This document shows positions 14,920 through 36,829 of a stretch of 36,829 nt of DNA, in pieces. Source of the stretch: Nocardioidaceae bacterium (lineage in GTDB: Bacteria; Actinomycetota; Actinomycetes; Propionibacteriales; Nocardioidaceae); contig JALDXR010000001.1 in NCBI GenBank assembly GCA_032154865.1, forward strand, positions 1-36,829, read 5' to 3'. How positions within the stretch are numbered: position 1 is the stretch's first letter; the number at the start of each line of letters is the position of its first letter. Under the pieces are notes generated by a model, which saw nothing but the letters and a program-made list of their open reading frames with translations, ran no database searches and had not been told where the DNA came from. Both the position numbers and the translations under genes were made by a program.

Positions 14920-14930
14920 AGCTGGGCTGG

Positions 14931-23507: not shown

Positions 23508-23950
23508 TGACGATCGCCGTACTCCTCGACGGGCTCTTGGTCGAGAACGTCGCCACCCTCCCCAACGCCGACCCGATCCCCGCCGCCCTGCGGTTCGTCC
23601 GCATGTTCGGCGGCTACAGCCGGGTGCTCATCGTGACGGCGGCGCCGGCGGAGATCGACGACGACACGATCCGCAACTGGGTCCGGCAGTACAACATCCC
23701 GATGACCGACCTCGTTCGCCTGGAGCCCCACCCCGCCGTGCGCAACGAGGACTTGATTCTGTCCGCCGCCGGGTACCGGGCGACGGTACTTGGTCTCTAC
23801 GTTGTGGCGTACCCTTACGACGTCGAGTACATGGCCGCCCACGGCGTGCCGACGGTCGCCTTCGCCCACGCCGACCCGGTGATCGACTACCGCCCCGAGC
23901 GCGGTCTGACGTGGGCCAGCTACGGGCGGAGTCAGGAGGCTGACGAGTGA
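23504..23950 (+). CDS. HAD/NT5C-like fold protein lacking the nucleophile Asp (tentative)
   Basis: ATGA overlap at the start. The N-terminus IAVLLDGLLVEN resembles the 5'(3')-deoxyribonucleotidase motif I, recalled as IAVDMDGVLAD, but the first Asp is Leu. Confidence 0.55.
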   Translation: MMTIAVLLDGLLVENVATLPNADPIPAALRFVRMFGGYSRVLIVTAAPAEIDDDTIRNWVRQYNIPMTDLVRLEPHPAVRNEDLILSAAGYRATVLGLYVVAYPYDVEYMAAHGVPTVAFAHADPVIDYRPERGLTWASYGRSQEADE

Positions 23951-25230
23951 GACTTTGGTTCGGCGGTGCCGAGGTCCCCGAGCACCGGACGACGCTCGGG
24001 CGCGCCGGCGTTCGGCGGGTCGCCGTGAACCTCGCTCCGATCCTCAAGCAGCGCTCCGGCGGCGCCGGCCCGGTCGAGAGCCTGGAGCCCTTCGCAGCGC
24101 TGTTCTACGCCTCTCAGGCCGATCTGCGGGCCGAGGGGGTGGATGAGTTCCTGGAGGCCTACAGCGACGATCAGAGCGCCTTCTACGGGCTCCTGACGCC
24201 ATTCACGGAGCGCTCCGGGCGCCTGGTGCCCGAGTGGCTCGGGCTCGATCCCGAGGAGGCCATCGAGATGGTCGTCGAGCACGGCGCCGTCGGCATCCCC
24301 GAAGCCCGGGCGATCGAGGCTCGCACGAGCCGGATCCTGACCAAGTTCCTGCGCCGCAACAGCGCCTCGCGGTTCTTCGTCAACAGCTCGAAGGTCTCGG
24401 TGCTCCAGCAGCCCTTCATCACCGACGTCATCGTCAACGGGTGGGTCTCGGCCCAGCGCTACCGCGAGCTGCAGGTGTGGGATGGCACCAAGGTCGTGCG
24501 CGCCGGCAAGGAGCGCCGGGCCGCCGCCCTGTCCAAGTTCTCCCAGCAGATCGAGAACCTGGGCGGCGACTTCGAGGCCGTCGAGGAGGGCGACGTCGCC
24601 GCGACCACCGAGGTGGCGATCGCCTCGTGGCTTCAGTACGAGCAGGTGGTTGCTACGCCTCATGCTCTCGGGCTCTCCGGCGAGAACGACGGCACCGACG
24701 TTGCCGTTGCGACGCACGGTGCCGTGGTCCGCAGGCCGGAGCAAGTGCCGATCCCGATCGCTCACGTCGATGAGGCCGGCACGATGGCCGGCGTCATCGG
24801 CGGGTCGTTCCGTCAGTGCGACGCCTGTCTGCTCGCCGACCTGTGCCCGAAGTTCGAGTCCGGGGCCTACTGCGCCTTCACGGTCGATGTCGAGATCCGC
24901 GACACCGACCAGGCGATGGCGGCGATGTCGACGCTCATCGAGATCCAGATGCAGCGCGCCCAGCGCGCCGTGTTCGCCGAGGAGGTCCTGGGCCAAGGGC
25001 CCAAGCATGAGGTCTCGGTCGAGCTGGAGCGGGTGTTCCGCATGTTCGAGTCGATGCGTCGGATCCAGGAGAACCGGGAGACGCTGACGATCCACGCCTC
25101 GACGTCGGGCGGCGACGGTGTGCTCTCGAAGATCTTCGGGCCCCGGGTCGGCTCGGCGAACAAGGAGCTGTCTCAGCCAGTCACCATCGATGCAGTCATC
25201 GAGGAGTCAGGAATAATCGACGCGGAGTGA
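23947..25230 (+). CDS. hypothetical 427-aa protein with internal Cys cluster
   Basis: GTGA overlap at the start. CDACLLADLCPKFESGAYC cluster and a helical C-terminal third. It is the last gene before the sparsely coding boundary region. Confidence 0.75.
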   Translation: MRLWFGGAEVPEHRTTLGRAGVRRVAVNLAPILKQRSGGAGPVESLEPFAALFYASQADLRAEGVDEFLEAYSDDQSAFYGLLTPFTERSGRLVPEWLGLDPEEAIEMVVEHGAVGIPEARAIEARTSRILTKFLRRNSASRFFVNSSKVSVLQQPFITDVIVNGWVSAQRYRELQVWDGTKVVRAGKERRAAALSKFSQQIENLGGDFEAVEEGDVAATTEVAIASWLQYEQVVATPHALGLSGENDGTDVAVATHGAVVRRPEQVPIPIAHVDEAGTMAGVIGGSFRQCDACLLADLCPKFESGAYCAFTVDVEIRDTDQAMAAMSTLIEIQMQRAQRAVFAEEVLGQGPKHEVSVELERVFRMFESMRRIQENRETLTIHASTSGGDGVLSKIFGPRVGSANKELSQPVTIDAVIEESGIIDAE

Positions 25231-25338: not shown

Positions 25339-25680
25339 ATGGCCACGAAGAAGTCCGCCGCCGATGAAGAGGCTGTGGCGGATCCCCACGCCGAGGCGTT
25401 CGCCGAGCGTCAGAAGGACGCCCGCTACGACGACCCGACCGTGTCCACGCCCGGCGTGCTCGAAGACGCCGCCGGCGAAGGACCCACGGCGCTCGTCGAC
25501 CCCGAGGCCGAGGGCGACGTCGGGCTCGACCCCGGCATCGACAACCGCGATCAGGTCCAGCCGATGCTCGACAAGCTCGCCTCCGACGCGGAGGAGAAGG
25601 CCGAGGAGCAGAAGGAAGCAGCGGCCGCCGCCAGCTCCAGCTCGTCGAGCAGCTCGACCACCAAGTCCGCCGACAAGTAG
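25339..25680 (+). CDS. acidic, low-complexity protein with poly-Ser run
   Basis: Strong SD AGGAGGAACCAC before the ATG. 113 aa with a Glu/Asp/Ala-rich composition, ending [20 protein letters not shown]. It is a stand-alone gene between non-coding gaps. Confidence 0.65.
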   Translation: MATKKSAADEEAVADPHAEAFAERQKDARYDDPTVSTPGVLEDAAGEGPTALVDPEAEGDVGLDPGIDNRDQVQPMLDKLASDAEEKAEEQKEAAAAASSSSSSSSTTKSADK

Positions 25681-25743: not shown

Positions 25744-25777
25744 GGTAGTGCCTCACTCTCGCCAGTGGGGCACTACC
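25744..25777. terminator. 14-bp stem hairpin (GGTAGTGCCTCACT-ctcgcc-AGTGGGGCACTACC), potentially bidirectional
   Basis: 13 Watson-Crick pairs plus one G-T wobble. It lies 64 nt after the + strand stop at 25680 and overlaps the stop of the candidate minus-strand ORF. No U-tract on either strand. Confidence 0.65.
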
Positions 25778-26030
25778 GCGTCAATCGCCGAAGTCGTTCC
25801 TGAACCCCCTCTCGGTCCATGCGGGCACTGCGCAACTCGCGCTTCGCACACACGACCTTGGAGTGACCGTGCTCGGATGCCTGGCCGTGGAGGGGGCAGG
25901 CAGGATCTGAGCCCGCCGGCGCCCAGTCGGCCGAGCGCCCAGGCCGGGGCTGTCGGCATGAGCACGAGCCGCACACCGTGCACCAGCGGCCGCCGTAGCG
26001 CTCGTCGCACCAGATGATCACGGCCGGCAA
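25773..26030 (-). CDS. candidate Cys-rich small protein (only plausible minus-strand gene)
   Basis: This frame has very high GC3 over its first ~40 codons, clearly better than any + frame here or the overlapping 113-aa minus frame. TTG start, or GTG at codon 4. WCDERYGGRWCTVCGSCSC...CPLHG. No SD was seen. Confidence 0.4.
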   Translation of the reverse strand: MPAVIIWCDERYGGRWCTVCGSCSCRQPRPGRSADWAPAGSDPACPLHGQASEHGHSKVVCAKRELRSARMDREGVQERLRRLTR

Positions 26031-26048
26031 GGTAGTTCATCGCCGATG

Positions 26049-26084
26049 TTGTGTCTCGCACACCGACGGTGTAGCTTCTGGGCC
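26049..26084 (+). promoter_or_regulatory. promoter cassette P1 (leaderless): TTGTGT-N17-TAGCTT-N7-ATG
   Basis: -35 at 26049-26054, -10 at 26072-26077, ATGAGCAC at 26085. No SD in the 7-nt spacer. Confidence 0.65.
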
Positions 26085-26405
26085 ATGAGCACATCCACCA
26101 AGCGCCCCCGCCTCGTCGTGGGCCACACCTACCGCATCACCTTCGCCGATGCTGAGACCGGCAACCGCCGGTACAGCACCACGGTCACGATTGTGGACAA
26201 GGACCAGACCTGGAGCGACAAGCGGGCCAGCGCCGTCCATGCCTACATCTCCCGCTGGATCCGTCACGGCCGCAACACCGTCGAGATCGTCGAGGTGGCA
26301 GCGCTTCAGTATCGCTGCACCGAGTGCGACACCGTCCACAGCACGTTCGACGCCGCAGCTCGTTGTCACTGGGGTATCGGTGGGGTCGAGGAGGTGGCGG
26401 CATGA
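26085..26405 (+). CDS. hypothetical protein, first gene of operon 1 (MST...)
   Basis: Starts ATGAGCAC 7 nt after the -10. 106 aa with CTEC...C near the C-terminus. Confidence 0.7.
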   Translation: MSTSTKRPRLVVGHTYRITFADAETGNRRYSTTVTIVDKDQTWSDKRASAVHAYISRWIRHGRNTVEIVEVAALQYRCTECDTVHSTFDAAARCHWGIGGVEEVAA

Positions 26406-26773
26406 GCTTCTACCGCAAGTCTCGCCCTCGTCCCGACGGGACCACGGGCTACAGCGGGTACGACCACGCTGACACCATCGATGACGCCGTCGAGGCCTAC
26501 AAGCGGGCTCGATCGACGAAGCACTTCATCCTCACCGACGGGTCCCCGGACCTCGACATGCTGACCTGCACGTGCGGCCACAAGCTCTCCGAGGGCGACG
26601 ATGGCAACCGCTGCCAGCTCGTCAAGCGCAACGGCGTGTTCTACGTCCTGGCCCAGCACTACAAGTGCGCCTGGGGCACCCTCCTCGGTGCCATCGGCAC
26701 TTCCCACACACTGGCCGAGGCCGGCGGCAAGCTCGCCCGCGCCGAGGCCGGCGGCTGGAAGGCGGTCGCATGA
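26402..26773 (+). CDS. hypothetical protein
   Basis: ATGA overlap at the start. 123 aa, contains CTCGH...C...C. Confidence 0.65.
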   Translation: MSFYRKSRPRPDGTTGYSGYDHADTIDDAVEAYKRARSTKHFILTDGSPDLDMLTCTCGHKLSEGDDGNRCQLVKRNGVFYVLAQHYKCAWGTLLGAIGTSHTLAEAGGKLARAEAGGWKAVA

Positions 26774-26940
26774 GCGTCATCGTCATCTGCGAGGACGGTG
26801 AGCGTCGGCACGACGAACCGTTCGAGACACGGGCCCAGGCGGCCGAGTTCGCCAACTGGGGCCACTGCTGCACCAACCGTCACCGCATCGTCACCGACGC
26901 CGGCGTCGAGTTGGGCATCACCTCGACGGAGTCACGATGA
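26770..26940 (+). CDS. hypothetical small protein
   Basis: ATGA overlaps at both ends. 56 aa. Confidence 0.6.
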   Translation: MSVIVICEDGERRHDEPFETRAQAAEFANWGHCCTNRHRIVTDAGVELGITSTESR

Positions 26941-27164
26941 AGTGGAACTTCATCGACAGTGGTCGTTGGGAGTCTGCCGATGGCCAGTGGCGCATCGAGA
27001 CCGAGGGCGTCCCGAGCAACTGGGGCGGCGGCGACATCATCGTCTGGCGCATTCATCGCTGGGACGGCCACCGGTGGCGCACGTTCGACCCCAAGAGCCG
27101 GCACCGCACATTGGCGGCCGCCAAGGTCGCCGTCGTCATGCACCTGGAAGACGCGAAGCGGTAA
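26937..27164 (+). CDS. hypothetical Trp-rich small protein
   Basis: ATGA overlap at the start. 75 aa (WNF..GRWESADGQWRIE..WRIHRWDGHRWR). Confidence 0.65.
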   Translation: MKWNFIDSGRWESADGQWRIETEGVPSNWGGGDIIVWRIHRWDGHRWRTFDPKSRHRTLAAAKVAVVMHLEDAKR

Positions 27165-27219
27165 CATCGTTGTACAACACAGATCTTGCCCGAGCTGGGT
27201 ATCTCTTTGGTGAGTGCTC

Positions 27220-27486
27220 ATGCAGTACCGGTGGTGCACCGGGAAGCGTGGCTCGGGAAGTGCACCGGATCAGCCCCGGGGGGATTCGTCCCTCCGGGGC
27301 TTGGTCATTGTGAAGAACGATCTCATCGCCACGGCCGCCTTCGGGCTGGTTCTGTACGTCTGCTGGCTGAGGTTCCTCGTGCGGGTGCACGAGAACCGGC
27401 TCGACCGCCGTGACTACTACGACCCGCCGACCGGCCGGCCGTGGGTACGGCCCCGACCCAGGTACGACAGAGATCTTTCACACTGA
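27220..27486 (+). CDS. small membrane protein (start uncertain: 27214 GTG, 27220 ATG or 27310 GTG)
   Basis: One TM (LIATAAFGLVLYVCWLRFLV). GC3 is very high after 27310 and moderate before it. Confidence 0.5.
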   Translation: MQYRWCTGKRGSGSAPDQPRGDSSLRGLVIVKNDLIATAAFGLVLYVCWLRFLVRVHENRLDRRDYYDPPTGRPWVRPRPRYDRDLSH

Positions 27487-27488
27487 CG

Positions 27489-27524
27489 TTGTGCACAACG
27501 ACGTTGTGCTGTAGCGTCTCCGCC
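27489..27524 (+). promoter_or_regulatory. promoter cassette P2 (leaderless): TTGTGC-N17-TAGCGT-N7-ATG, with nested palindromes
   Basis: -35 at 27489-27494, -10 at 27512-27517, ATGAGCAC at 27525. A 14-bp palindrome CGTTGTGCACAACG lies at 27487-27500 and a 17-bp palindrome GCACAACGACGTTGTGC at 27493-27509. Confidence 0.7.
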
Positions 27525-27713
27525 ATGAGCACTTATCCAGACATCACGGGCGACGCCCAAGCCGTCGTCCGCTTCCAGCAGGCGTACGCCGAGTTCGCCT
27601 TCCTCTGCTACGGCATCCCCGTCGGGCAGCCGATCGTCGTGACCGTCGAGCAGGACAAGTTCCTGTGCGACTCCGCCGTCGAGTACCTGCGGGATCAGGC
27701 GGTGGCGCGATGA
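27525..27713 (+). CDS. hypothetical protein, first gene of operon 2 (MST...)
   Basis: Leaderless-type start. 62 aa. Confidence 0.7.
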   Translation: MSTYPDITGDAQAVVRFQQAYAEFAFLCYGIPVGQPIVVTVEQDKFLCDSAVEYLRDQAVAR

Positions 27714-28078
27714 GGGCCATCGATCGTCACGAGGACGCCATCGTCGCTGTCCTCGACGCCGTCGACTACGACGGCATGAGCTACTGGCGGGCGCTCAAGC
27801 AGGTCGCCAACGCCAATGGTCTCCGCTCGGCCCGCCTCGACCAGCTGGTGCGCACATGGTGCGCCATCGCCGGTATCGAGGTGCCGACTGGCAACTACTC
27901 GTTCCACGTCAGCCTTCACCGGTTCGACGACGGCGGGACGCTCGCCAAGTGGTCCGCCATGGGCCCCGTCAATCAGACCGCCACCTTCGTCCGCTTCATC
28001 GGTTCCGGTACCGCCGGCACCATCGATGAGGCCGAGGCGGCCGCCATCAACTACATCGCAGAGAGGACTCCATCATGA
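27710..28078 (+). CDS. hypothetical protein
   Basis: ATGA overlap at the start. 122 aa. Confidence 0.65.
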   Translation: MRAIDRHEDAIVAVLDAVDYDGMSYWRALKQVANANGLRSARLDQLVRTWCAIAGIEVPTGNYSFHVSLHRFDDGGTLAKWSAMGPVNQTATFVRFIGSGTAGTIDEAEAAAINYIAERTPS

Positions 28079-28422
28079 ATCGTGAACAAGCCATCACCAA
28101 CCTCGGCTTCGGGCGGGCGTTCGCCGCTCTCGCGCCGGCGCCCGAGGACACCCACCTCCAGGTCGACCTCGACACGCTGTTGTCGGTCCTGGAGGCGCTT
28201 CCCGGCTACGCCGAGGTCGACATCACCTTCACTGAAGGTGGCGACTCCCAGAACTTCCACCTGATGGCCCGCGACATGCCCGGCCCCGGCCGGCGCTTCA
28301 CGTGTCTCACGCACGGCACCGAGTGGCTCGACGTCAGCGACATCATCCGCAGCACTCGCCCGGACTTCATCCACATCGTTCGCCACGACGACCCAGGTCA
28401 GACGATCTGGGTCACGTTGTGA
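28075..28422 (+). CDS. hypothetical protein
   Basis: ATGA overlap at the start. 115 aa. Confidence 0.65.
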   Translation: MNREQAITNLGFGRAFAALAPAPEDTHLQVDLDTLLSVLEALPGYAEVDITFTEGGDSQNFHLMARDMPGPGRRFTCLTHGTEWLDVSDIIRSTRPDFIHIVRHDDPGQTIWVTL

Positions 28423-28423
28423 C

Positions 28424-28852
28424 ATGAACGTTCTTCCCGTTGCACTGGGCCGCCTGGCTGGCCGCATCGTCATCGACGGTGATCACTGGCTGTGGACTGG
28501 CTACATCGACGCCAAGGGCTACGGCGCGGCCAGGCACCCGGTGCACGGGAAGGTGCGTCGTGTTCACATCATCGTCTGGGAGCTGCTTGTCGGTCCTCGG
28601 ACACCGGGCCTGCAGTTTGATCATCTGTGCCGAGTTCGGCACTGCTGTAACCCGGCACATTTGGAAGAGGTGACAGCGGCCGAGAACACCGATCGTGGTG
28701 CAGCCCGACGTGGTCACCATCTGACACGCACACACTGCAGTCACGGCCACCTGCTCGTCGAGCATGGCTACATCGATCCGCGTCGCGGTCAGTGGCGCTG
28801 CCGAGTGTGCCTCCACGAAAGTTATTTGCGCAGGTCAGCGCAGTCTGACTGA
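28424..28852 (+). CDS. HNH homing-type endonuclease
   Basis: DGDHWLWTGYIDAKGYG...VHIIVWELLVG...LQFDHLCRVRHCCNPAHLEEVTAAEN is the classic phage HNH_3-type signature. Confidence 0.85.
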   Translation: MNVLPVALGRLAGRIVIDGDHWLWTGYIDAKGYGAARHPVHGKVRRVHIIVWELLVGPRTPGLQFDHLCRVRHCCNPAHLEEVTAAENTDRGAARRGHHLTRTHCSHGHLLVEHGYIDPRRGQWRCRVCLHESYLRRSAQSD

Positions 28853-28916
28853 TGCGCGCACCCATCTGCGCACAATGCGTAGGACATCAACCCAACCCCG
28901 GAAGGAAACACCAACC

Positions 28917-29315
28917 GTGAATACTCAAACCAACACCGCTGAAGTCGTCGAGCTGGCTGATGCCACGCTCGGACTTCAGGTCCACCGGCTGATCGAGCTG
29001 GACGCCAAGATCAAGGCGGCCAAGGAGGCTCGCGACGAGCTGGCCGCCGAGATCGTCGAGGCGATCGACGCCCGTGACGGCACCGTCACTGTCGACGGCA
29101 TCAAGGTCACCGTCGTGCGCGCCGTGCGCCGGGTGATCGACATCGCCAAGCTGGAGCAGGTCACCAGCCGCCGGCTGTTCGCCAAGCTCACCGAGCGCGT
29201 CGTCAGCATCAAGGCGTACGACGCCCACCTGGCTGCCGGCACGGCCGGCATCGAGGCGGTCGAGGAGATCGTCGAGGAGCGTGAGAACGCTCCGGTCCTC
29301 AGGATCACGAAGTGA
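28917..29315 (+). CDS. hypothetical coiled-coil protein (similar layout to 8350-8775)
   Basis: GTG 28917 lies 10 nt after GGAAGGA; an alternative ATG is at 28875. 132 aa. Confidence 0.6.
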   Translation: MNTQTNTAEVVELADATLGLQVHRLIELDAKIKAAKEARDELAAEIVEAIDARDGTVTVDGIKVTVVRAVRRVIDIAKLEQVTSRRLFAKLTERVVSIKAYDAHLAAGTAGIEAVEEIVEERENAPVLRITK

Positions 29316-29319
29316 CGTC

Positions 29320-29940
29320 ATGAGCTACGTCAATGCGCAGTATGACCCCGACGGTCAGCTGCACCTCGTCCCGCAGCCTCACTCCTTCTGGAGTGGGGCT
29401 GCCAAGGGCGCCGTCTTCGGCGCCATCCTGGCCGGCGTCACACGACCTGTCCGGCGCTACATGCTGACGATGCTGGCGCTCACCTTCGCCATCATCTTCA
29501 CCATCGAGACACCCAGCGACTACTGGGACGGTGTCTCGACGCCGGCGCCCGAGCCGGGCGACTACCGCTTCCCGTGGTACTGCATCGCTCTCATCATCAC
29601 CTTCGTTGTCTGGGGCATCTACGGAGGCATCCGGGCGTGGATCCTCAACCGCCAGATCTACGCCGCCGGACAGGCGCCTGTGCAGCGCCTGAAGGCTCGC
29701 ATGAGCGGCCGGGCGATCATCGCCGTCGATACCACGCCGCGGCCGCCACAGAGCCCCACAGGGCCCTCTCGTGGGCCCGTAGTGGACACGACCGCGACCG
29801 ATGCGCCGGTGGGCTCGAACCTGCCGGCGATCTGGGTCCCGACCTACAGCGGGCCGGCCAAGCCGGTGCGCCGGATCGAGACCGGGCTCAGCGGTCACAC
29901 CATCCATGATCACCGCGGCGTCGACCCGGAGGACCTGTGA
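29320..29940 (+). CDS. integral membrane protein (3 TM) with Pro-rich C-terminal region
   Basis: TM segments AVFGAILAGV, YMLTMLALTFAIIFTI and WYCIALIITFVVWGIYGGI. Confidence 0.65.
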   Translation: MSYVNAQYDPDGQLHLVPQPHSFWSGAAKGAVFGAILAGVTRPVRRYMLTMLALTFAIIFTIETPSDYWDGVSTPAPEPGDYRFPWYCIALIITFVVWGIYGGIRAWILNRQIYAAGQAPVQRLKARMSGRAIIAVDTTPRPPQSPTGPSRGPVVDTTATDAPVGSNLPAIWVPTYSGPAKPVRRIETGLSGHTIHDHRGVDPEDL

Positions 29941-30245
29941 TGCACTACCAACTGTTCCACAACCGCTCCGCCGGCTTCTGGCGGACCTACGAGCCGGGCG
30001 ACGAGCTGGTCGCCGGCTACCGGGGCGAGTTCCCGCCGTGCTTCAGCATCCGCGACGACCTCGACCCTCGCGAGGCGCTCCTCGGCATCGCCGAGGTGAT
30101 CTTCGCCAAGCACAACCGCGATGACCGCCCCGACGGCAAGACGGCGCCCAGTCTGAGCGTCGGCGACGTCGTCGTGATCGGTGAGGTCGCTCTGTCGGTC
30201 GACCGGCTCGGCTTCGTCTTCGTCACCCTGGAGCCGGCGTCATGA
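29940..30245 (+). CDS. hypothetical protein
   Basis: ATG in a TGATG overlap (or GTG 29937). 101 aa. Confidence 0.65.
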   Translation: MHYQLFHNRSAGFWRTYEPGDELVAGYRGEFPPCFSIRDDLDPREALLGIAEVIFAKHNRDDRPDGKTAPSLSVGDVVVIGEVALSVDRLGFVFVTLEPAS

Positions 30246-30430
30246 GCGCCAAGGCCTGGGTCTGGAAGCGGTGCTCCGCCGGCCACAACCGGTGGTACGA
30301 GTACGGCCCCTACACGATCATGCACTTCCCGCAGCGACATCTCTGGAAGCTGTACATCGACGGTGAGATGGTCCGCACGTTCGACACCTTGCGCGCCGCC
30401 AAGCAGTGGGCCCAGTGGAGGATGTCATGA
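30242..30430 (+). CDS. hypothetical small protein
   Basis: ATGA overlap at the start. 62 aa. Confidence 0.6.
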   Translation: MSAKAWVWKRCSAGHNRWYEYGPYTIMHFPQRHLWKLYIDGEMVRTFDTLRAAKQWAQWRMS

Positions 30431-30654
30431 GCCGGTTCGAGTTCGAGCCCGAGACCCCCGAGTACGACCTCGTGATCGCGGCCATCGAGGTCGCCATGCG
30501 GCCGCCCTTGCAGCCGCATCCGCACGTGGTCGACGCCAAGGTCCCGTGGAAGCTGATCACCGACCTGCGCGAGCGCCTCGACGCCCTGGGCATCGACTGG
30601 CGCAAGGCCAAGCAGATCGACGAGGAGCGGCGAGCCCGGAGGGCTGCGTCATGA
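30427..30654 (+). CDS. hypothetical small protein
   Basis: ATGA overlap at the start. 75 aa. Confidence 0.6.
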   Translation: MSRFEFEPETPEYDLVIAAIEVAMRPPLQPHPHVVDAKVPWKLITDLRERLDALGIDWRKAKQIDEERRARRAAS

Positions 30655-30842
30655 TCATCCACGAGAACTACAGCGGGGATGACAACGGCCAGCTGGTGTA
30701 CGTCAACATCTTCGAGGAGAACGGCGGCCAGGTCGTCGTCAGCTTCGAGGATGCCGGCGAGGCACGGTTCGACGCCCACCGCCTGCGGCGGTTCCGCAAC
30801 AACCTCAACAAGGCGCTCCGGGCGCTCGGTGAGAAACCGTGA
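30651..30842 (+). CDS. hypothetical small protein
   Basis: ATGA overlap at the start. 63 aa. Confidence 0.6.
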   Translation: MIIHENYSGDDNGQLVYVNIFEENGGQVVVSFEDAGEARFDAHRLRRFRNNLNKALRALGEKP

Positions 30843-30851
30843 TCATCGACG

Positions 30852-30887
30852 TTGTTGTTCATCGACGGTGTGGATAGCGTTCCGCCC
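30852..30887 (+). promoter_or_regulatory. promoter cassette P3 (leaderless): TTGTTG-N17-TAGCGT-N7-ATG
   Basis: -35 at 30852-30857, -10 at 30875-30880, ATGAGCAC at 30888. Shares the CGACGTTG..TTCATCGACGGTG block with P4 and P5. Confidence 0.7.
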
Positions 30888-31580
30888 ATGAGCACTTACG
30901 AAGTTGAACACGACACCCGCCTCCTGGAGCTGTTCCGGGCGGCGGCCAAGGCCGAACAGACCCTCATCTGGAAGGACGCCCACTACCGCAGCGAGTCGGA
31001 GGGCCGCCTGGTCCGGCGGAGGTACGGGGACAAGGACACCCGCACGATCGCCGAGGTCGCCGCTGACATGCAGGCCCGCCGCGACGAGGCCGTTCCGTTC
31101 TGGACCGAGAAGCACCCCGAGGACCCTCAGCGCATGATCGACTACGTCGTCGGCAAGCTCGACGAGGTCGAGAACAGCTACCGCGAGGCCGCCCAGGCCG
31201 TCGTGGACGCCGAGGCCGCGATCGTCGAGCACGAGCGGGCGTACGCTGGCTGGCAGCGCTTCTGGCTGGTGACGTCGAGCAACGGGCTCGTGCACCGGTC
31301 GACGGGCTGCTCGACCTGCAACAAGGGCCGCAGCGCCACCACGTTCGCCCTCGTTGCCGCGATGAGCGGCCGGCCGATCGACCACCTCGTCGAGGCCGTC
31401 GGTCCGTTCCTCTGCAGCGTCTGCTTCCCCTCGGCCCCGGTCGAGTGGCAGGAGCAGGACCGTGTGCCGGCGACCGTCGCCACGGTGCTGTTCGACGAGG
31501 GCTACGACGCCTTCGTCGCCGCCTGGGCCGAGTTCAAGCGCAAGCGGGCCGCCCGCCTCGCCAAGAAGGCGGCGAAGTGA
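30888..31580 (+). CDS. hypothetical protein, first gene of operon 3 (MST...)
   Basis: 230 aa. Contains GCSTC ... CSVC and a basic tail KRKRAARLAKKAAK. Confidence 0.7.
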   Translation: MSTYEVEHDTRLLELFRAAAKAEQTLIWKDAHYRSESEGRLVRRRYGDKDTRTIAEVAADMQARRDEAVPFWTEKHPEDPQRMIDYVVGKLDEVENSYREAAQAVVDAEAAIVEHERAYAGWQRFWLVTSSNGLVHRSTGCSTCNKGRSATTFALVAAMSGRPIDHLVEAVGPFLCSVCFPSAPVEWQEQDRVPATVATVLFDEGYDAFVAAWAEFKRKRAARLAKKAAK

Positions 31581-31822
31581 TGGCCCGCTACCTGCGCACC
31601 ACGATCTCACGTGTCACCGGGCGACCGGTGACCGTGGGCCACGGCGCCGATCTCGGTCTCGACTTCGAGGGCGAGGGCCCGTGGTACACCATCTGTGACG
31701 ATCACGCTCAGCTGTGCTCGCACACCACCCTGGCCGACGCACGTGGGTGGGCCGCCGAACCGACGATGTGGTGCGAAGCCTGCCAGTCCGAGCACCCGCT
31801 CAAGCTCCGAAAGGACGCATGA
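31580..31822 (+). CDS. hypothetical protein
   Basis: TGATG overlap at the start. 80 aa with C..C...C..C. Confidence 0.6.
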   Translation: MARYLRTTISRVTGRPVTVGHGADLGLDFEGEGPWYTICDDHAQLCSHTTLADARGWAAEPTMWCEACQSEHPLKLRKDA

Positions 31823-32145
31823 CCATGGGCAATCTCAATGCCGCTGCGATGGCTGAGGCCGTCGGCGAGGGCCAGGTCGGACTCCGGCCGGCGCTCGTTT
31901 GGCACCTCCAGTCCAACCACTACCCGCCGGTGCCGACCTCGATGGTCGACGCCTGTATCGCCGCCATCGAGGCGGCCGCCGATGATGACTGGGACCTCGA
32001 CATCGAGCTGCCCGACAGCGTCACCTACCGCGACCAGTCGACAGCTCCGGCGTCGGCGATCGTCGCCAACTACCACCTGGAGTTCTTCGTCGAGAACCAG
32101 TTGGTCATCAACGAAGCAACCGAGTTCGAGACCGAGGAGTCATGA
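31819..32145 (+). CDS. hypothetical protein
   Basis: ATGA overlap at the start. 108 aa. Confidence 0.6.
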   Translation: MTMGNLNAAAMAEAVGEGQVGLRPALVWHLQSNHYPPVPTSMVDACIAAIEAAADDDWDLDIELPDSVTYRDQSTAPASAIVANYHLEFFVENQLVINEATEFETEES

Positions 32146-32510
32146 GCATCCACCCAGCCCAACACCCCCGCTTCGCCCAGGCGATGTGGTACGCCTGGGG
32201 CCAGCAGGACGCCGGCATCGGCCGTCATGTCGACGCCCCCGAGTTCGCCCTGGCGCACGCCACGCACGCCGTGCGCGTCGACGAGGGCCAGGACAACTGG
32301 CTGCCGTCGATCCAGGACGCCTGGAAGACGTTCATCGCCTCTCGTCAGACCATGTCGGCGCTCTCCGAGCCCGAGATCGGCACGATCCAGAAGCGTCTCT
32401 CATCGGCGATGAACGAACTCGACGCCTGCGGCCAGGGCGACCTGGCGAACCGGGTGCACGACATCTTCAAGGAAGTCGCCCGCCGCACGTTCGGGGAGGT
32501 GCCGGCATGA
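32142..32510 (+). CDS. hypothetical protein
   Basis: ATGA overlap at the start. 122 aa. Confidence 0.65.
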   Translation: MSIHPAQHPRFAQAMWYAWGQQDAGIGRHVDAPEFALAHATHAVRVDEGQDNWLPSIQDAWKTFIASRQTMSALSEPEIGTIQKRLSSAMNELDACGQGDLANRVHDIFKEVARRTFGEVPA

Positions 32511-32851
32511 ACACCGCCGTTGATCAAGCGATCGACTGGGTGCGGGACAACATGCCCATCGAGTCGGGCGCGGCGATCGAGCAGTTCGTCAAGCGCAACC
32601 CGCACTACGCCGGCGCCAACTGGGACGACGTCCTGGAGATCCTCCTCGACGCCGACGCCGACCTCACTTGGACCGAGCCGCTGCACGAGGTCGACGAGAC
32701 CTTCCCGGCCAACGTCCTGGAGTCCGCCGTCACCACCACCTTCGCCTGGGCCATCGAGGCCTTCATCGAGGAGCTGGCGCCGATCGAGCGCATCTCCTCG
32801 GTGCGGACGACCATCAACCTCATCAACGAAGACAAGGAACAACAGCAATGA
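32507..32851 (+). CDS. hypothetical acidic protein
   Basis: ATGA overlap at the start. 114 aa. The track ORF region 31838-32506 is out-of-frame Arg/Pro/Ser-rich sequence. Confidence 0.65.
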   Translation: MNTAVDQAIDWVRDNMPIESGAAIEQFVKRNPHYAGANWDDVLEILLDADADLTWTEPLHEVDETFPANVLESAVTTTFAWAIEAFIEELAPIERISSVRTTINLINEDKEQQQ

Positions 32852-33051
32852 CCGCGAATCGACACAGCGAGATCACCCGCACCATCGAAGCCGACAAGGA
32901 GGGACTCATCGAGCACCTCCGCGAGGCGCTCGGCCGCCACGAGCACACCCACCTCCGGTCGCCGAGCGAGGCCTGGGCCGCCGGCTGGAACCGAGGTCTG
33001 GAGTTCGCCATCGGCGTGCTCGAAGACTGGGACGGCAAGGTGCCGTCATGA
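32848..33051 (+). CDS. hypothetical small protein
   Basis: ATGA overlap at the start. 67 aa. Confidence 0.6.
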   Translation: MTANRHSEITRTIEADKEGLIEHLREALGRHEHTHLRSPSEAWAAGWNRGLEFAIGVLEDWDGKVPS

Positions 33052-33425
33052 GAGGCTCCGTCGAGTTCAGCACCAACGTCACGGTCGATGATCGTGACCC
33101 TGTGGTGCTCACCAATCAGGATCACTTCTCCCATCGCGGCAAGCCGTTCCGTACGGAGCAATGGCGAGCCGTCGGTAACACCTACGGTGACGACATCGGC
33201 ACGTGGTCGTGGTATCGCTCCGGCAAGATCCTCAAGAACGACGGCACGCCGCGTGCGGACGGGGCCGGCGCTACGTCGTACGTCAAGTTCGACGACGTCC
33301 CCGGCTACGTCCTGCGGGCGGTGCTGAAGGAGATCGAGCGGCGCGCCCGGGCGGCGCATGCCGAGATCGATCACTGGGTCCAGAGGGCTCGCGATCAGGT
33401 TACCGCGGTGGAGGCACCGGCATGA
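33048..33425 (+). CDS. hypothetical protein
   Basis: ATGA overlap at the start. 125 aa. Confidence 0.65.
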   Translation: MRGSVEFSTNVTVDDRDPVVLTNQDHFSHRGKPFRTEQWRAVGNTYGDDIGTWSWYRSGKILKNDGTPRADGAGATSYVKFDDVPGYVLRAVLKEIERRARAAHAEIDHWVQRARDQVTAVEAPA

Positions 33426-33658
33426 GTCAGCATCGTTGTCACTGCCGGCAGCCGGCGACGTGGACCGCCCGCGTCGTGCCGGCGCGGGAGGTCGTCCTCG
33501 TCGAGGGCCACCTGCCCGAGTACGTCCTGGCTCCCTCGTCGGTCGACACCTGGGCGGCGTGTGATGAGCACGTCGCCGAGGCGATGCGCAACCTCGTCGA
33601 GCGCAACGACATGGCCGGCGCTCAGCTCGTGCTCCGTCGAGAGGGCGAGGAGGACTGA
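33422..33658 (+). CDS. hypothetical small protein
   Basis: ATGA overlap at the start. 78 aa. Confidence 0.6.
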   Translation: MSQHRCHCRQPATWTARVVPAREVVLVEGHLPEYVLAPSSVDTWAACDEHVAEAMRNLVERNDMAGAQLVLRREGEED

Positions 33659-33963
33659 TGCGGTTCCTGATCTGTCCGGTGTGCGGCGAGGAGTGGGATC
33701 TCGACGACCTCCACGCAGAGGTCGCTGAGAGCGCCCACAAGGGCCTCAGGCGGCCATTCAGCGCCGTTGTGCGTGAGTTCCAGCGGCAGGGCTGTGGCGT
33801 CGCTCTGGAGGCCTTCACGGGCCCTCTGGCGTGCCGCCCGAGCACCGACCCGGACACCGTCGAGCTGGCCGAGATGGCGAAGATGACCTACGAGCTGCTC
33901 GGCGCCGACATCGACGGGTGCATCAACGAGATCGAGGACTACCGGCTCGTGCACGGGCTCTGA
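33658..33963 (+). CDS. hypothetical protein with N-terminal CPVC motif
   Basis: TGATG overlap at the start. 101 aa. Confidence 0.65.
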   Translation: MRFLICPVCGEEWDLDDLHAEVAESAHKGLRRPFSAVVREFQRQGCGVALEAFTGPLACRPSTDPDTVELAEMAKMTYELLGADIDGCINEIEDYRLVHGL

Positions 33964-33970
33964 GGAACTT

Positions 33971-34016
33971 GCACAACGACGTTGTGCTTCATCGACGATG
34001 ACGTAGACTTCCCGCC
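33971..34016 (+). promoter_or_regulatory. promoter cassette P4 (leaderless): TTGTGC-N16-TAGACT-N7-ATG, with the 17-bp palindrome
   Basis: The palindrome GCACAACGACGTTGTGC at 33971-33987 is identical to 27493-27509. -35 at 33982-33987, -10 at 34004-34009, ATGAGCAC at 34017. Confidence 0.7.
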
Positions 34017-34826
34017 ATGAGCACAACAGCCACCTCGAAGCAGCTCGGCTTCCTCGGTTCCCTCCTCCGGGAGCGGGCCCGCCAGCTGCATATCACCGAT
34101 GTCGAGGCCGCCATCACCGCACTCACCGAGCAGCGGATCACGATGGACGGCGCCTCGGCGACGATCAACCACCTCCTCACGCTGAAGACCGACGCCGTCG
34201 TCTTCCCCGCTGCGCCGGTCCAGGGCGACCCCCGCGGCAACCTGCCGAAGAACCGCTACAGCGGCCGTTGCGTCCTGTGCAACGCGAACGTCGCCGAGGG
34301 CGCCGGCACCTACCGCCGCGGCGACCGCGGCTGGGAGACGCTGCACCTGCCCGGTCAGTGCGCCGGCCCGGCCCTGACCTCGGACAAGCCGAAGCAGACC
34401 TTCGGCGAGCGCGTCACCGAGATCCTCGGCGACCTGCCCGACGGCTGGTACGCCGTCGAGGCCGTCGGCGAGAGCACCAACGACCTCACCTTCGTCCGGT
34501 TCGCCACGAACAAGGGCGTGTACGACGCCTCGAAGAAGGGTCAGCGCTACGTCCGCCACATCGTCGGCGGGCACGGCGAGCAGGGCAACGTCACCATCGC
34601 CTGGATCGAGAAGGTGGCCGCCGCCGTGCGTGCCGCCGGGACCGACGAGTCGGCGATCCTGTTCGGTCAGCGGATGGGCCAGTGCGGGTTCTGCCACACC
34701 GAGCTGACTCGTAAGTACAGCGCCGACAAAGGCTACGGCCCGACGTGCGCAGACAAGCACGGGCTTCCCTTCGACTACACCGCCTATGCGGCGAGCCAGA
34801 AGATCTCGGACGCGAAGGGTGAGTGA
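34017..34826 (+). CDS. hypothetical protein, first gene of operon 4 (MST...), with C-terminal DUF6011-like Cys motif
   Basis: CGFCHTELTRKYSADKGYGPTCADKHG fits my recollection of the CxxC...LT...S...G(I/Y)GPxC pattern. An extra CVLC...C lies mid-protein. 269 aa. Confidence 0.7.
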   Translation: MSTTATSKQLGFLGSLLRERARQLHITDVEAAITALTEQRITMDGASATINHLLTLKTDAVVFPAAPVQGDPRGNLPKNRYSGRCVLCNANVAEGAGTYRRGDRGWETLHLPGQCAGPALTSDKPKQTFGERVTEILGDLPDGWYAVEAVGESTNDLTFVRFATNKGVYDASKKGQRYVRHIVGGHGEQGNVTIAWIEKVAAAVRAAGTDESAILFGQRMGQCGFCHTELTRKYSADKGYGPTCADKHGLPFDYTAYAASQKISDAKGE

Positions 34827-34827
34827 G

Positions 34828-35076
34828 ATGGACAGGCATCTCGTCGTCCGCAGCCGGAACCCCTGGGTCGGTGTGAGCAAGTCTCACGCCGCCCAGGCCG
34901 GTACCGGCGCTCCTCCGCGCAACGCTCCCGCCGGCTACGCCAACGACGTCGAGTACACGTCGTTGTGCGGCCGCCGGCATTTCATCGCCACGACCGGCAC
35001 CTTCGAGGAGCTGGCGGAGTGGGAACAGTGCGGCCGGTGTGCCGCGATCATCGAACGAAAGGAACAACAGTCATGA
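34828..35076 (+). CDS. hypothetical small protein
   Basis: ATG lies 1 nt after the upstream stop and is preceded by AAGGGTGAGTGAG. 82 aa, with C...CGRC at the C-terminus. Confidence 0.55.
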   Translation: MDRHLVVRSRNPWVGVSKSHAAQAGTGAPPRNAPAGYANDVEYTSLCGRRHFIATTGTFEELAEWEQCGRCAAIIERKEQQS

Positions 35077-35417
35077 CCACGTCCATCCTCGTGGGCCCGG
35101 ACGACACCGGTCGGGACATCGTGCCCGAGCAGCTGCTCGCCCAGATCGGCATCGGCAACCTGATGGCCGTCTCCGGCGGCCGCTGGATCCGCTACGGGTT
35201 CAGCTCGGTCCGGTTCCCCTGCGGCGCCGGCTACGAGGTCCTCGTGACCCTGGAGGCCGACGACACCTACACCGTGCGGCGGATCTTCAGCCGCAGCGGT
35301 ACGTGGTTCCTCCACGGCGAGCGCACCAACGTCTACAACGACGCTGTCTCCGAGGTCGTCTACTTCGCGTCTTGTTTCCGTAGTTACGAGCCCGGCGAGT
35401 GGGAGCACAAGGCATGA
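35073..35417 (+). CDS. hypothetical protein
   Basis: ATGA overlap at the start. 114 aa. Confidence 0.65.
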   Translation: MTTSILVGPDDTGRDIVPEQLLAQIGIGNLMAVSGGRWIRYGFSSVRFPCGAGYEVLVTLEADDTYTVRRIFSRSGTWFLHGERTNVYNDAVSEVVYFASCFRSYEPGEWEHKA

Positions 35418-35578
35418 TCTGCAAGCACTGCGCCTGGACCCACGATCACGTGCACTGCACTTGTAGCCGGTTCTTCCGCGGCGTGCAGGTGCACGAGGTC
35501 CAGGCGCTCGATCCGAACTGCCCGCAGCACGGCATCGGCACCGACTGGTACCGGCGAGAGGTCGAGCTGGAGAGCTGA
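35414..35578 (+). CDS. 54-aa Cys/His-rich protein (below the ORF-track cutoff)
   Basis: ATGA overlap at 35414. Translation is MICKHCAWTHDHVHCTCSRFF...NCPQHG...ELES, ending at TGA 35576-35578. High GC3. Confidence 0.5.
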   Translation: MICKHCAWTHDHVHCTCSRFFRGVQVHEVQALDPNCPQHGIGTDWYRREVELES

Positions 35579-35599
35579 AGTGCAGTGTCGTTGCACTTC
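35577..35599 (+). terminator. 8-bp stem hairpin GAAGTGCA-gtgtcgt-TGCACTTC followed by TTGG
   Basis: Exact inverted repeat that starts in the stop codon of the last operon-4 ORF. Confidence 0.55.
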
Positions 35600-35635
35600 T
35601 TGGCTGCCGTTCACCCCTGCGTAACCCGATCTTCA

Positions 35636-35671
35636 TTGACGCTGGACTTCCTGGCGTGTTGACTGGGCCTC
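35636..35671 (+). promoter_or_regulatory. degenerate sixth cassette: TTGACG-N17-TTGACT-N7-GTG
   Basis: It has the same N17/N7 geometry as P1-P5. However, the -10 position 2 is T rather than A, and the start codon is GTG. Confidence 0.3.
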
Positions 35672-35854
35672 GTGACTGCTCCTCTCGACGACGTCGCGGT
35701 GCACCGGGTGCCGTGCTCGGACTGCGGTCGCACGCGCCTGCTCGGCATCGAGCGCACCGTTCTGGCCATCGTGCCGGCGCCCGGTCCGCACCGCAATGAA
35801 CTCATCGTCGATGTGATCGTGACCGTGCTCGACGGCTGCGGGGACTGCACCTGA
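35672..35854 (+). CDS. 60-aa zinc-ribbon protein
   Basis: CSDCG ... CGDC pairs. GTG start with no SD. Confidence 0.45.
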   Translation: MTAPLDDVAVHRVPCSDCGRTRLLGIERTVLAIVPAPGPHRNELIVDVIVTVLDGCGDCT

Positions 35855-35873
35855 GAAATCCCGCTCAGCGGCG

Positions 35874-35908
35874 TTGCGTTCATCAACGGTGTGCGTAGAC
35901 TTCCCCCC
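35874..35908 (+). promoter_or_regulatory. promoter cassette P5 (leaderless): TTGCGT-N16-TAGACT-N7-ATG
   Basis: -35 at 35874-35879, -10 at 35896-35901, ATGAGCAC at 35909. GTAGACTTCCC is identical to P4. Confidence 0.7.
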
Positions 35909-36829
35909 ATGAGCACGACCAATGAACTCCGGGCGCTCCTCGGCGATCTCGCCGACCTGGCGCTCCCGCACCTGCAGGGCCGCCTGGTCCCGATCCACAA
36001 GGGCCGCACGACCCTCTCCAAGGCGCACGACGCCGACCTGGGCGACTTCTTCCTCGCCTCGACGATGTACCCCTATCAGCGGGCCGGCGCGGCGTTTGTC
36101 GCCGAGGTCCGCCGGGCGCTCATCGCCTACGACATGGGCCTGGGCAAGACCATCACGGCGATCGGCTCGGTCGTCCGCGAGGAGCTGTTCCCCGCCGTCG
36201 TGATCTGCCCGCCGAGCCTCGTGCTCAACTGGCGCAACGAGTTCGCCAAGTTCACCCCCGGTGTGCGCACCCACGTGATCCGCGGCCAGGAGATCACCGA
36301 CCTGCCCGACGCCGATGTCTACATCGTCGGTGACGCCATCATCGGCGAGCGCAAGGAGACCAAGAAGCTGGCGGCGACCCCGGGCTGGGCTGCGAAGCTC
36401 GCCGAGCTGGGTCCCCGGGCGCTCGTGATCGACGAGTCGCACCGGATGAAGAACCGCAAGGCGGCCCGCACCATCGCCGCCCGGGCGATCGCCCGCAAGG
36501 TCGACGACAAGGGCATCGTGGCGCTGCTGTCCGGCACGCCGATGCGCTCGAACCCGGCCGAGCTGCTGGAGCAGTTCCAGGTGATGGGCGTCGTCGAGCA
36601 GATCTGGGGTTCCCCCTTCGCCTTCCTCGACCGGTTCTACCCGAAGGTCGACCAGTGGGGCGGCCGTGAGGCGGACAACCTGGGCGAGCTGCACGCCGAG
36701 ATGGTCGACACCGTCGTTGCTCGGCTCACCTTCGCCGACGTCAGCTACCAGCTCGGCGAGGCGGCGCCCAAGGGCCGTCTGCGGGTCCCCGTCGCCACGC
36801 CGCTCACCGGCACCGCGGCGACGAAGTAC
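35909..36829 (+). CDS. SNF2-family helicase (copy 2), 5' partial, runs off the window end
   Basis: I translated this by hand; it is absent from the track because no stop is reached. MSTTNELRALLG..., YPYQRAGAAF, motif I DMGLGKT, motif II VIDESHRMKN, motif III LSGTPMRSNPAEL. 307 codons remain open to base 36829. Confidence 0.9.
   Translation, partial: MSTTNELRALLGDLADLALPHLQGRLVPIHKGRTTLSKAHDADLGDFFLASTMYPYQRAGAAFVAEVRRALIAYDMGLGKTITAIGSVVREELFPAVVICPPSLVLNWRNEFAKFTPGVRTHVIRGQEITDLPDADVYIVGDAIIGERKETKKLAATPGWAAKLAELGPRALVIDESHRMKNRKAARTIAARAIARKVDDKGIVALLSGTPMRSNPAELLEQFQVMGVVEQIWGSPFAFLDRFYPKVDQWGGREADNLGELHAEMVDTVVARLTFADVSYQLGEAAPKGRLRVPVATPLTGTAATKY

Follow-up and report, generated by a model that had tools for sequence, protein, structure and literature searches.

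Repeated promoter-like cassettes with predicted leaderless starts and paired dyads in the accessory arm of a putative soil actinobacteriophage

Introduction

The actinophage phiC31, a 41-kb temperate siphovirus, is reported to carry many similar early promoters in its intergenic gaps, each with an inverted-repeat operator for one repressor (work of Ingham, Smith and colleagues, 1993–1995); these promoters are said to be unlike the housekeeping consensus and not to have been described as leaderless cassettes. The stoperators of Cluster A phages, the sites of L5 gp71, are reportedly asymmetric 13-bp sequences, many of them in one orientation, which block elongation and lie mostly away from promoters. 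Cluster K start-associated sequences consist of a motif placed just 5' of the start codon that includes the ribosome-binding sequence, and leaderless mRNAs are widely used in the host group of the halovirus HF2. The present study concerns another repeated element, a set of five near-identical cassettes named P1 to P5, found in the contig JALDXR010000001.1; the entire contig, 36,829 bp long with 65.7% GC, was analyzed and is called the window hereafter.

Cluster O mycobacteriophages (Corndog group) possess eight or nine SigA-like promoters, several of them predicted to be leaderless, and four of these split a long run of small genes into operons; they also carry a divergent pair, PL1/PR2, in which both promoters are leaderless, and a separate dyad-symmetric 17-bp repeat located mostly away from promoters (PMC4351075). 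In T4-like phages, the elements termed PeSLs are repeated early-promoter cassettes positioned between ORFans, where they mediate gene shuffling (PMC4122927). For HF2, repeated intergenic sequence classes with promoter activity in reporter assays have been described (PMC8707807). The cassettes described here are likely, in our view, to be promoters for the host housekeeping sigma factor with leaderless starts, of which P1 opens an accessory gene arm, P2 to P5 are nested within it and all carry dyads that would act as operators.

Results

Five near-identical cassettes that end on start codons

The pattern TTGNNN-N16/17-TAGNNT-N7-ATGAGCAC has exactly five sites in the window, all on the forward strand, against 0.01 matches expected by chance, and defines a unit of about 60 bases ending on a start codon. 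P1 (26036–26092) reads TTGTGT-N17-TAGCTT-CTGGGCC-ATG, with the -35 element at 26049–26054, the -10 element at 26072–26077, a 7-nt discriminator and the octamer ATGAGCAC at 26085–26092, the ATG being at 26085. P2 (27481–27532) reads TTGTGC-N17-TAGCGT-CTCCGCC-ATG, with the -35 and -10 elements at 27489–27494 and 27512–27517 and the octamer at 27525–27532 (ATG at 27525). In P3 (30844–30895), TTGTTG-N17-TAGCGT-TCCGCCC-ATG, the corresponding positions are 30852–30857, 30875–30880 and 30888–30895 (ATG at 30888). P4 (33974–34024) and P5 (35866–35916) have the shorter spacer: the former reads TTGTGC-N16-TAGACT-TCCCGCC-ATG (-35 at 33982–33987, -10 at 34004–34009, octamer at 34017–34024, ATG at 34017) and the latter TTGCGT-N16-TAGACT-TCCCCCC-ATG (-35 at 35874–35879, -10 at 35896–35901, octamer at 35909–35916, ATG at 35909). 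The -10 element lies 7 nt from the ATG in all five, which places a C at -1 and an A at +1, and none has a Shine-Dalgarno (SD) sequence. These cassettes, their coordinates, the constant 7-nt distance and the lack of an SD had been reported in a preliminary description made from the sequence and its reading frames, and all are confirmed here.

The cassettes stand out clearly from the rest of the window. With at most one mismatch, GTAGNNTNNNNNCCATG gives six matches against 0.96 expected, five of which are the cassettes, and a weight matrix covering positions -16 to +8 assigns them 31.6–34.2 bits, the next-best position on either strand scoring 8.7. The octamer ATGAGCAC itself occurs ten times in the window against 1.15 expected. 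In four of the five predicted mRNAs, the 5' end is unpaired. Two relatives contributed 42 kb of baseplate and replication genes to the search; neither these nor the first 25 kb of the window contain a cassette, so that within the sequence covered the element is restricted to the accessory arm.

Conservation of the cassette in uncultured relatives

Homologues of the P3-led protein are encoded on two syntenic contigs, L028 (an NCBI contig of 17 kb from a metagenome-assembled genome; 75% protein identity) and L029 (an ENA contig of 177,771 bp; 64% protein identity), which share about 75–85% nucleotide identity with the window in syntenic blocks. Both carry the cassette at orthologous and at further positions, the orthologues of P3 lying at position 10001 in L028 and at position 10001 in L029. 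About a dozen further soil contigs with genuine cassette copies came from a scan of JGI metagenomes. Among 185,579 GTDB representative genomes, multiple copies were present on the L028 contig only, and some 52 single matches approximate the estimated chance number; the cassette is therefore no repeat of hosts or prophages. In IMG/VR, neither the two pattern scans nor the two protein scans yielded a cassette-bearing relative; a high-GC contig with TTGACA-N18-TAGCCT-N7-ATGAGCAC, met in these scans, appears to carry an unrelated leaderless promoter and was set aside. A blastn search of one cassette against 50,697 phage records gave chance matches only, inside coding regions of proteobacterial phages.

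A detector restricted to upstream sequence, that is, to two core elements and TANNNT with no ATG required, retrieved 37 cassettes on 14 contigs, and an ATG comes next in all 37 (after 7 nt in 34, 6 nt in two and 8 nt in one). The start reads ATGAG(C/T)A in 36 of the 37 family copies; among seven copies collected without any ATGAG-containing pattern, six read ATGAGCA and one ATGAACG. Positions +1 to +8 are nearly invariant and +9 is free, which bears out the earlier proposal that conservation acts at the nucleotide level and reaches +8. The second codon is AGC or AGT in 36/37 and AAC in the remaining copy, never a TCN serine codon, and AGY accounts for only 28% of the serine codons of the window. 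Upstream of the start, the -10 element conforms to TANNNT (A at position 2, T at position 6) in 5/5 window and 37/37 family copies, with G at position 3 in 31/37, and the -35 to -10 spacer measures 16–17 nt in 32 copies and 18–19 nt in the rest. In the -35 TTG, the detector prescribed the TG and accepted either G or T as first base; TTG is present independently of it in the five window copies. Over the family, 72% of the 7 nt preceding the ATG are C or T, and neither GGAG nor GAGG occurs there.

The preliminary description had envisaged, as its counter-case, a motif lost in relatives that keep the genes. The opposite is seen: the motif is retained at orthologous sites, even where the genes have been replaced. 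Aligned with L028 and L029, the cassettes show 59–93% identity at places where a flank often shows no more than about 40%, as unrelated sequences do. The P1 cassette is 84–90% conserved in both contigs, homology ending at +7 or +16 of the ATG, and it precedes three unrelated open reading frames (ORFs), of 106 aa in the window, 72 aa in L028 and 82 aa in L029. At P2, homology to L028 is limited to the cassette (27485–27547) and both flanks are unrelated; nested gene sets follow this one cassette across the three genomes, and the 62-aa gene that P2 leads in the window comes second behind the cassette in L029, where it starts through an ATGA stop-start overlap. The P4 region is homologous to L028 and L029 from position 33971, the cassette's 5' edge, onward. 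P5 is 93% identical to its L029 orthologue, in which a 1-nt deletion in the C-run brings the spacing to 6. Altogether, the 16 cassette-led genes of the three genomes belong to at least ten unrelated families, and all their products start with MS(T/N/K).

Orthologous cassettes from different genomes resemble each other more than paralogous cassettes within one genome do. Since type-specific differences persist across genomes while the octamer AUGAGCAC is common to all types, the octamer is maintained by purifying selection and not by recent copying. Three more distant relatives, L030 to L032, whose marker protein is 48–56% identical, present the same geometry with a different cassette sequence, GTTGYACGTCGTTGAAC..TGCTAnnAT-N7-(A/G)TGACCA in L030 and L031 and TGTACACT-N7-ATG in L032.

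Two dyads in every cassette

Each cassette contains two 11-bp dyads of the form CAnCG-A-CGnTG, often extended to 13-bp palindromes such as ACAACGACGTTGT or TCATCGACGATGA. Neither these dyads nor the divergent partner of P1 treated below figured in the preliminary description. The 5' dyad (dyad 1) provides the -35 element with its TTG and the 3' dyad (dyad 2) lies in the spacer. In P1, dyad 1 is CATCGCCGATG (26038–26048) and dyad 2, CACCGACGGTG (26061–26071), abuts the -10 element; in P2, the dyads are CACTGACGTTG (27481–27491), which holds the TGA stop of the upstream gene, and CAACGACGTTG (27496–27506). P3 carries CATCGACGTTG (30844–30854), directly 3' of the TGA stop at 30840–30842, and CATCGACGGTG (30860–30870). 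In P4, dyad 1 is again CAACGACGTTG (33974–33984), inside the perfect 13-bp palindrome ACAACGACGTTGT, and dyad 2, CATCGACGATG (33990–34000), lies inside the palindrome TCATCGACGATGA. P5 combines CAGCGGCGTTG (35866–35876) with an imperfect dyad 2, CATCAACGGTG (35881–35891). The left half-site, which the detector left unconstrained, has C at -5 in 37/37 copies and A at -4 in 31–37 of the 37. The dyad pattern is about 55-fold denser within the cassettes than in the rest of the window, with 8 of its 34 window matches falling in roughly 200 nt of cassette.

Dyad 1 is fixed with respect to the -10 element through the 16–17-nt spacer, dyad 2 floats by 0–6 nt, and the centre-to-centre distances fall into two classes, 15–16 and 19–20 bp. 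A fixed and a floating site fit protein-binding sites better than polymerase contacts, and the dyads are most likely operators for one dimeric regulator common to all cassettes, as judged from their sequence and placement. As they sit over the -35 element and in the spacer, repression is suggested. No helix-turn-helix protein was found among the approximately 45 ORFs of the window in Pfam and PHROG scans, the only regulator detected being a WhiB-like protein. This protein, a Cys-rich 82-aa ORF and an ORF of 165 aa, with faint matches to MerR among its relatives, are candidates for the regulator.

Other interpretations of the dyads were tried and rejected. An RNA hairpin cannot form from a 5-bp stem with a 1-nt loop. 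An extracytoplasmic-function sigma signature of the type GGAAC-N17-CGTT would require a spacing that here is only 11–12 nt, and a second, overlapping promoter with dyad 2 as its -35 element has no -10 element at the right distance. Genome-wide enrichment of dyads outside the cassettes was likewise discarded: there, the pattern occurs about 0.7 times per kb, a density that the coding regions of relatives share and that is probably due to codon usage.

Divergent arrangement at P1 and tight packing of P2 to P5

P1 is the only cassette preceded by a strong hairpin and a strand switch. The hairpin, with a 14-bp stem (25744–25777), is located between the convergent genes 25339–25680 (forward) and 25773–26021 (reverse); the 121-nt fold reaches -56 kcal/mol (z = -3.4), and it is probably a bidirectional terminator closing the replication-module transcript before P1. 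The reverse-strand gene, which starts with GTG at 26021, encodes an 82-aa Cys-rich product (VIIWCDERYGGRWCxVCGxCSCR...WAPxGxDPxCPLHG). Its predicted leftward promoter core occupies 26022–26034 and consists of the -10 element TACCTT (complement of 26029–26034) followed by 7 nt and the GTG. The leftward start codon and that of P1 are separated by 63 nt, and dyad 1 is common to both. The leftward TANNNT-N6/7-start is kept in seven relatives, with variable inner bases (TACCTT, TACGGT, TATCTT).

The Cys-rich ORF has ten related loci on nine distinct contigs (47–78% identity by tblastn) and adjoins a P1-type cassette in each contig that carries this cassette. Its substitutions favor third codon positions, with 11 against 3–4 in pairwise comparison and 423 against 269 and 285 overall. 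It is uncalled in the protein database, and neither Pfam nor PHROG gave a match nor the homologue search a candidate; matches in the PDB, the best being to designed ankyrin-repeat proteins (E = 1.8e-5 over about 30 residues), were judged spurious. Its candidacy as regulator is drawn by inference only. On the other side of the hairpin, at the end of the gene 25339–25680, the segment 25675–25691 (GTAGACCTCCCGCC) agrees in 13 of 14 positions with the P4 stretch made up of -10 element and discriminator (GTAGACTTCCCGCC), but no ATG comes next; a remnant of a cassette and a coincidental resemblance are both possible.

The gaps before P2 to P5 measure 38, 45, 53 and 54 nt and are taken up completely by promoter and dyad elements. 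In P4 and P5, the preceding gene has its stop codon at the cassette's 5' edge; in P3, the stop codon abuts dyad 1, and in P2 it is built into dyad 1, as CACTGACG variants. No terminator-like site adjoins any cassette of the window. With such short gaps and no terminators, transcripts are probably nested rather than insulated, and the earlier view that the cassettes partition the region into operons finds no support. Stop-start coupling through ATGA was considered as the cause of the ATGAGC start and rejected, as the upstream ORF ends on that TGA in only one cassette.

Genes behind the cassettes

The first genes after P1 to P4 are located at 26085–26405 (106 aa, an orphan), 27525–27713 (62 aa), 30888–31580 (230 aa, phrog_2433, function unknown) and 34017–34826 (269 aa, with DUF6011 at the C-terminus), and P5 is followed by an SNF2-family helicase gene cut off by the contig end (35909–36829), all on the forward strand. 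An exact look-up of the P4-led protein returned no record. These are the products first listed for the five gaps, and we agree that all five begin with MST, two of them with MSTY. The suggestion that they form an early host-takeover or anti-defence regulon is beyond the evidence: no anti-defence function is recognisable in the products downstream of the cassettes, whose sole family matches are SNF2, DUF6011 and PHROGs of unknown function.

Organization and origin of the contig

All recognized genes of the window lie on the forward strand except the Cys-rich one. Replication and recombination genes occupy the first 25 kb and include a DnaB-like helicase (4321–5661), an SNF2 helicase (6402–8333), DNA polymerase I (10218–12374), a RecA/UvsX-like protein (12693–14252), the WhiB-like factor (14557–14919), which belongs to this replication module, and a Cas4-type exonuclease (14661–15788). 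They are followed by genes for a collagen-like tail-fibre protein (20032–21066) and, just 5' of the accessory arm, a TGT/DpdA-like protein of the queuine tRNA-ribosyltransferase family (23947–25230, phrog_887), which hints at 7-deazaguanine DNA modification. From about 26 kb to the contig end, there are roughly 25 small ORFs, nearly all without a family match, and the terminal gene is the second SNF2 helicase. The two SNF2 genes share 31% identity, and a recent duplication or an assembly wrap-around was rejected on this ground. Scanning the window for Rfam families and tRNA genes gave no hit. GGGTGGG/CCCACCC units form a long and very stable hairpin at 2965–3033, within the 3' part of a weak ORF and 5' of the gene at 3205; the 101-nt fold (2950–3050) has -57 kcal/mol with z = -6.4, and a role as terminator, origin or regulatory structure is conceivable.

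Megablast searches with both window halves revealed no DNA-level relative among the 50,697 phage records. For the polymerase, the nearest cultured relatives are Streptomyces phages of 113–116 kb, at 29% identity, and DnaB homologues with 74–81% identity delimit an uncultured clade with contigs of 105–178 kb, in which the replication module follows baseplate genes. The host is probably an actinobacterium, judging by the WhiB-like gene, the GC content, a related NCBI contig binned as Actinomycetota and the matches of accessory proteins in Mycobacterium and Gordonia phages. We propose from these comparisons that the cassettes belong to the accessory arm of a large (roughly 105–178 kb) uncultured soil actinobacteriophage.

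Further starts and repeated segments

The preliminary description held that almost every other gene starts by an overlap or after an SD. This is broadly so, with the exception of at least three starts and one minus-strand gene, which show TANNNT-N6-8-start in unrelated sequence. The three starts are TACAGT-N6-ATG (8350), TAACAT-N6-ATG (21174) and TACAGT-N8-ATG (22977); they are conserved at the orthologous sites L154 13998, L028 750 and L028 1802, respectively, and may represent a second promoter class for replication and structural genes. At 33561–33571 (GTGATGAGCAC), an octamer ATGAGCAC (at 33564) forms a possible TGATG start with 1-nt overlap and no cassette upstream. The segment 35619–35671, TTCATTGACGCTG...TTGACG-N17-TTGACT-N7-GTG, is about 95% identical to L029 and exceeds in conservation the ORF behind it, a conserved 60-aa CxxC...CxxC frame (35672–35854); its appearance is that of a cassette, decayed or variant, whose '-10' departs from TANNNT. 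Finally, two gene starts (32822–32856 and 35047–35081) share an approximately 80% identical block, ATCA(A/T)CGAA...AAGGAACAACAGnnATGACC, a repeated start region of SD type.

Discussion

In the mechanism that we favor, a holoenzyme of SigA/HrdB type would read TTGNNN, the 16–17-nt spacer, TAGNNT and the 7-nt pyrimidine-rich discriminator with C at -1 and A at +1, and transcription would start on the A of the ATG, giving the first gene of each unit a leaderless mRNA with the fixed 5' end AUGAGCAC. This reading relies on the match between the core geometry and genome-wide start-site maps of actinobacteria. In Mycobacterium tuberculosis, TANNNT lies 7–12 bp upstream of the start and the +1 purine is flanked by a pyrimidine (PMC3898074); in Mycobacterium smegmatis, ANNNT is found at -6 to -13 (PMC6448022); and in Streptomyces coelicolor, 21% of primary start sites yield leaderless mRNAs, with AUG preferred (PMC4895711). 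A start on the AUG had already been put forward in the preliminary description, and the promoter-like placement and the comparative data now lend it weight, the exact position being predicted from the 7-nt geometry. Ribosomes would begin translation of the SD-less first gene at the leaderless 5' end. P1 would open the arm after the hairpin and strand switch, back-to-back with a leftward leaderless promoter for the Cys-rich protein, and P2 to P5 would be internal promoters that lay new leaderless starts over read-through transcription. Cassette-led genes would be poorly translated from the SD-less read-through RNA and probably mainly from their own leaderless transcript. One dimeric regulator bound at the paired dyads would switch all cassettes together. 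The shared octamer could serve either promoter escape or ribosome loading.

Several points weigh against this mechanism. The -35 and -10 elements match a loose consensus only, and several columns of the 37-site set are fixed by the patterns used for its collection. The conservation of the spacer and of positions +1 to +8 exceeds the ordinary needs of SigA, and a phage-specified factor may be involved. The two variable base positions of the dyad show no co-variation between half-sites, the two classes of distance between the dyads do not suggest simple cooperative binding, and a DNA-binding protein able to read them was not identified in the Pfam and PHROG scans of the window. The cassettes of L030 to L032 indicate that the architecture is clade-wide and the sequence lineage-specific.

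The last point is also one of those in favor of phage-redirected transcription, in which the cassettes would be read by a phage sigma factor, by a WhiB-like or other sigma-appropriating factor or by a phage RNA polymerase. A cassette sequence proper to each sub-lineage suggests co-evolution with a phage factor, the phage does encode a WhiB-like protein, and conservation over about 60 nt reaching into the transcribed region is known from promoters of dedicated polymerases. We nevertheless hold this explanation to be unlikely: the core is a textbook TTG-N16/17-TANNNT-N7-purine arrangement, the spacer dyad varies in its distance to the -10 element by up to 6 nt, unlike a rigid polymerase site, and no RNA polymerase or sigma gene was seen in about 100 kb of the window and relatives examined.

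Slightly less probable still is that the cassettes are chiefly recombination modules similar to PeSLs, with the shared ATGAGCAC as a by-product and a secondary promoter role, an explanation compatible with promoter function. The breaks in homology at or inside cassettes (+7 and +16 at P1, both sides at P2, the 5' edge at P3 and P4), the three unrelated ORFs behind the same P1 cassette and the nested insertions or deletions of genes at P2 all point in this direction, and the T4-like phages offer a precedent (PMC4122927). By length, the 9 of 57 blastn end-points from two relatives that fall in cassettes amount to about four times the expectation, but they approximate the cassette share of gene boundaries (5 of about 27). 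The greater likeness of orthologues than of paralogues argues against frequent exchange or gene conversion between cassettes, which moreover have no stem-loop, and recombination leaves the strict -35/-10/ATG geometry unexplained. That the cassettes are translation-level signals on polycistronic RNA, like the Cluster K sequences, and not promoters is very improbable: each of them does run up to a start codon and take in the first codons, but they carry no SD or purine-rich ribosome-binding sequence ahead of the ATG, where pyrimidines dominate, their conserved blocks fall on the -35 and -10 elements at canonical spacing, and a mirror-image TANNNT-N7-GTG faces P1 on the opposite strand.

Beyond the reading of the cassettes as housekeeping-sigma promoters with leaderless starts, we entertain as a tentative and rather doubtful extension that the cassette is a portable promoter-operator-start module, the arm a platform for gene capture and expression under one regulator, possibly the Cys-rich protein, and the octamer an unrecognised determinant of leaderless initiation. 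Any ORF arriving behind a cassette would then be expressed from the AUGAGCAC end with no ribosome-binding site of its own, and the octamer would act on promoter escape or on loading of the 70S ribosome. If the promoter reading is true, at least 37 copies placed before at least ten unrelated genes constitute a clean natural set for the needs of actinobacterial leaderless promoters and starts, and bear on whether the first 8 transcribed nucleotides matter in leaderless initiation. They would also provide compact (about 55-nt) candidate expression cassettes for high-GC hosts and illustrate a possible way for a large uncultured soil phage to arrange its arm of orphan genes and regulate it jointly.

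Comparison with known systems

Like Cluster O, the accessory arm combines predicted promoters of housekeeping-sigma type, a predicted +1 on the start codon, a co-directional array of small genes of unknown function and a divergent pair predicted to be leaderless. The near-identical 60-nt cassettes and their shared first 8 coding nucleotides are reported in neither form for Cluster O; further differences are the two dyads inside every promoter here, the lack of sequence similarity and another phage lineage. With phiC31 the locus would share a conserved dyad-symmetric site repeated at the promoters of an actinophage, as that system is reportedly organized, but lysogeny is not indicated here and no repressor was found in the approximately 45 ORFs scanned. 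As with the stoperators, which are said to be spread in many copies over co-directional arrays, one phage protein would control all sites; unlike the stoperators, the present sites are dyad-symmetric and lie within promoters.

The likeness to PeSLs, which occupy hyperplastic regions of large lytic phages, lies in small, repeated cassettes with host-sigma promoters, predicted ones in the present case, that are placed between the ORFans of a large phage and persist while genes are exchanged. PeSLs, in contrast, join a stem-loop terminator to the promoter and precede genes with leaders and ribosome-binding sites, whereas the cassettes have neither stem-loop nor terminator. The HF2 sequences are AT-rich motifs of the archaeal TATA/B recognition element type, unrelated in sequence and machinery, and the Cluster K sequences differ by the purine-rich ribosome-binding sequence that belongs to their definition. 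Repeated host-sigma promoters, leaderless phage transcripts and operators embedded in promoters are all known, and no new mechanism is involved. We have not found described the combination seen here, in which features of Cluster O, phiC31 and the PeSLs are joined with a fixed set of first eight transcribed bases. The cassettes are a well-preserved, lineage-specific version of a known phage strategy and not a new kind of system.

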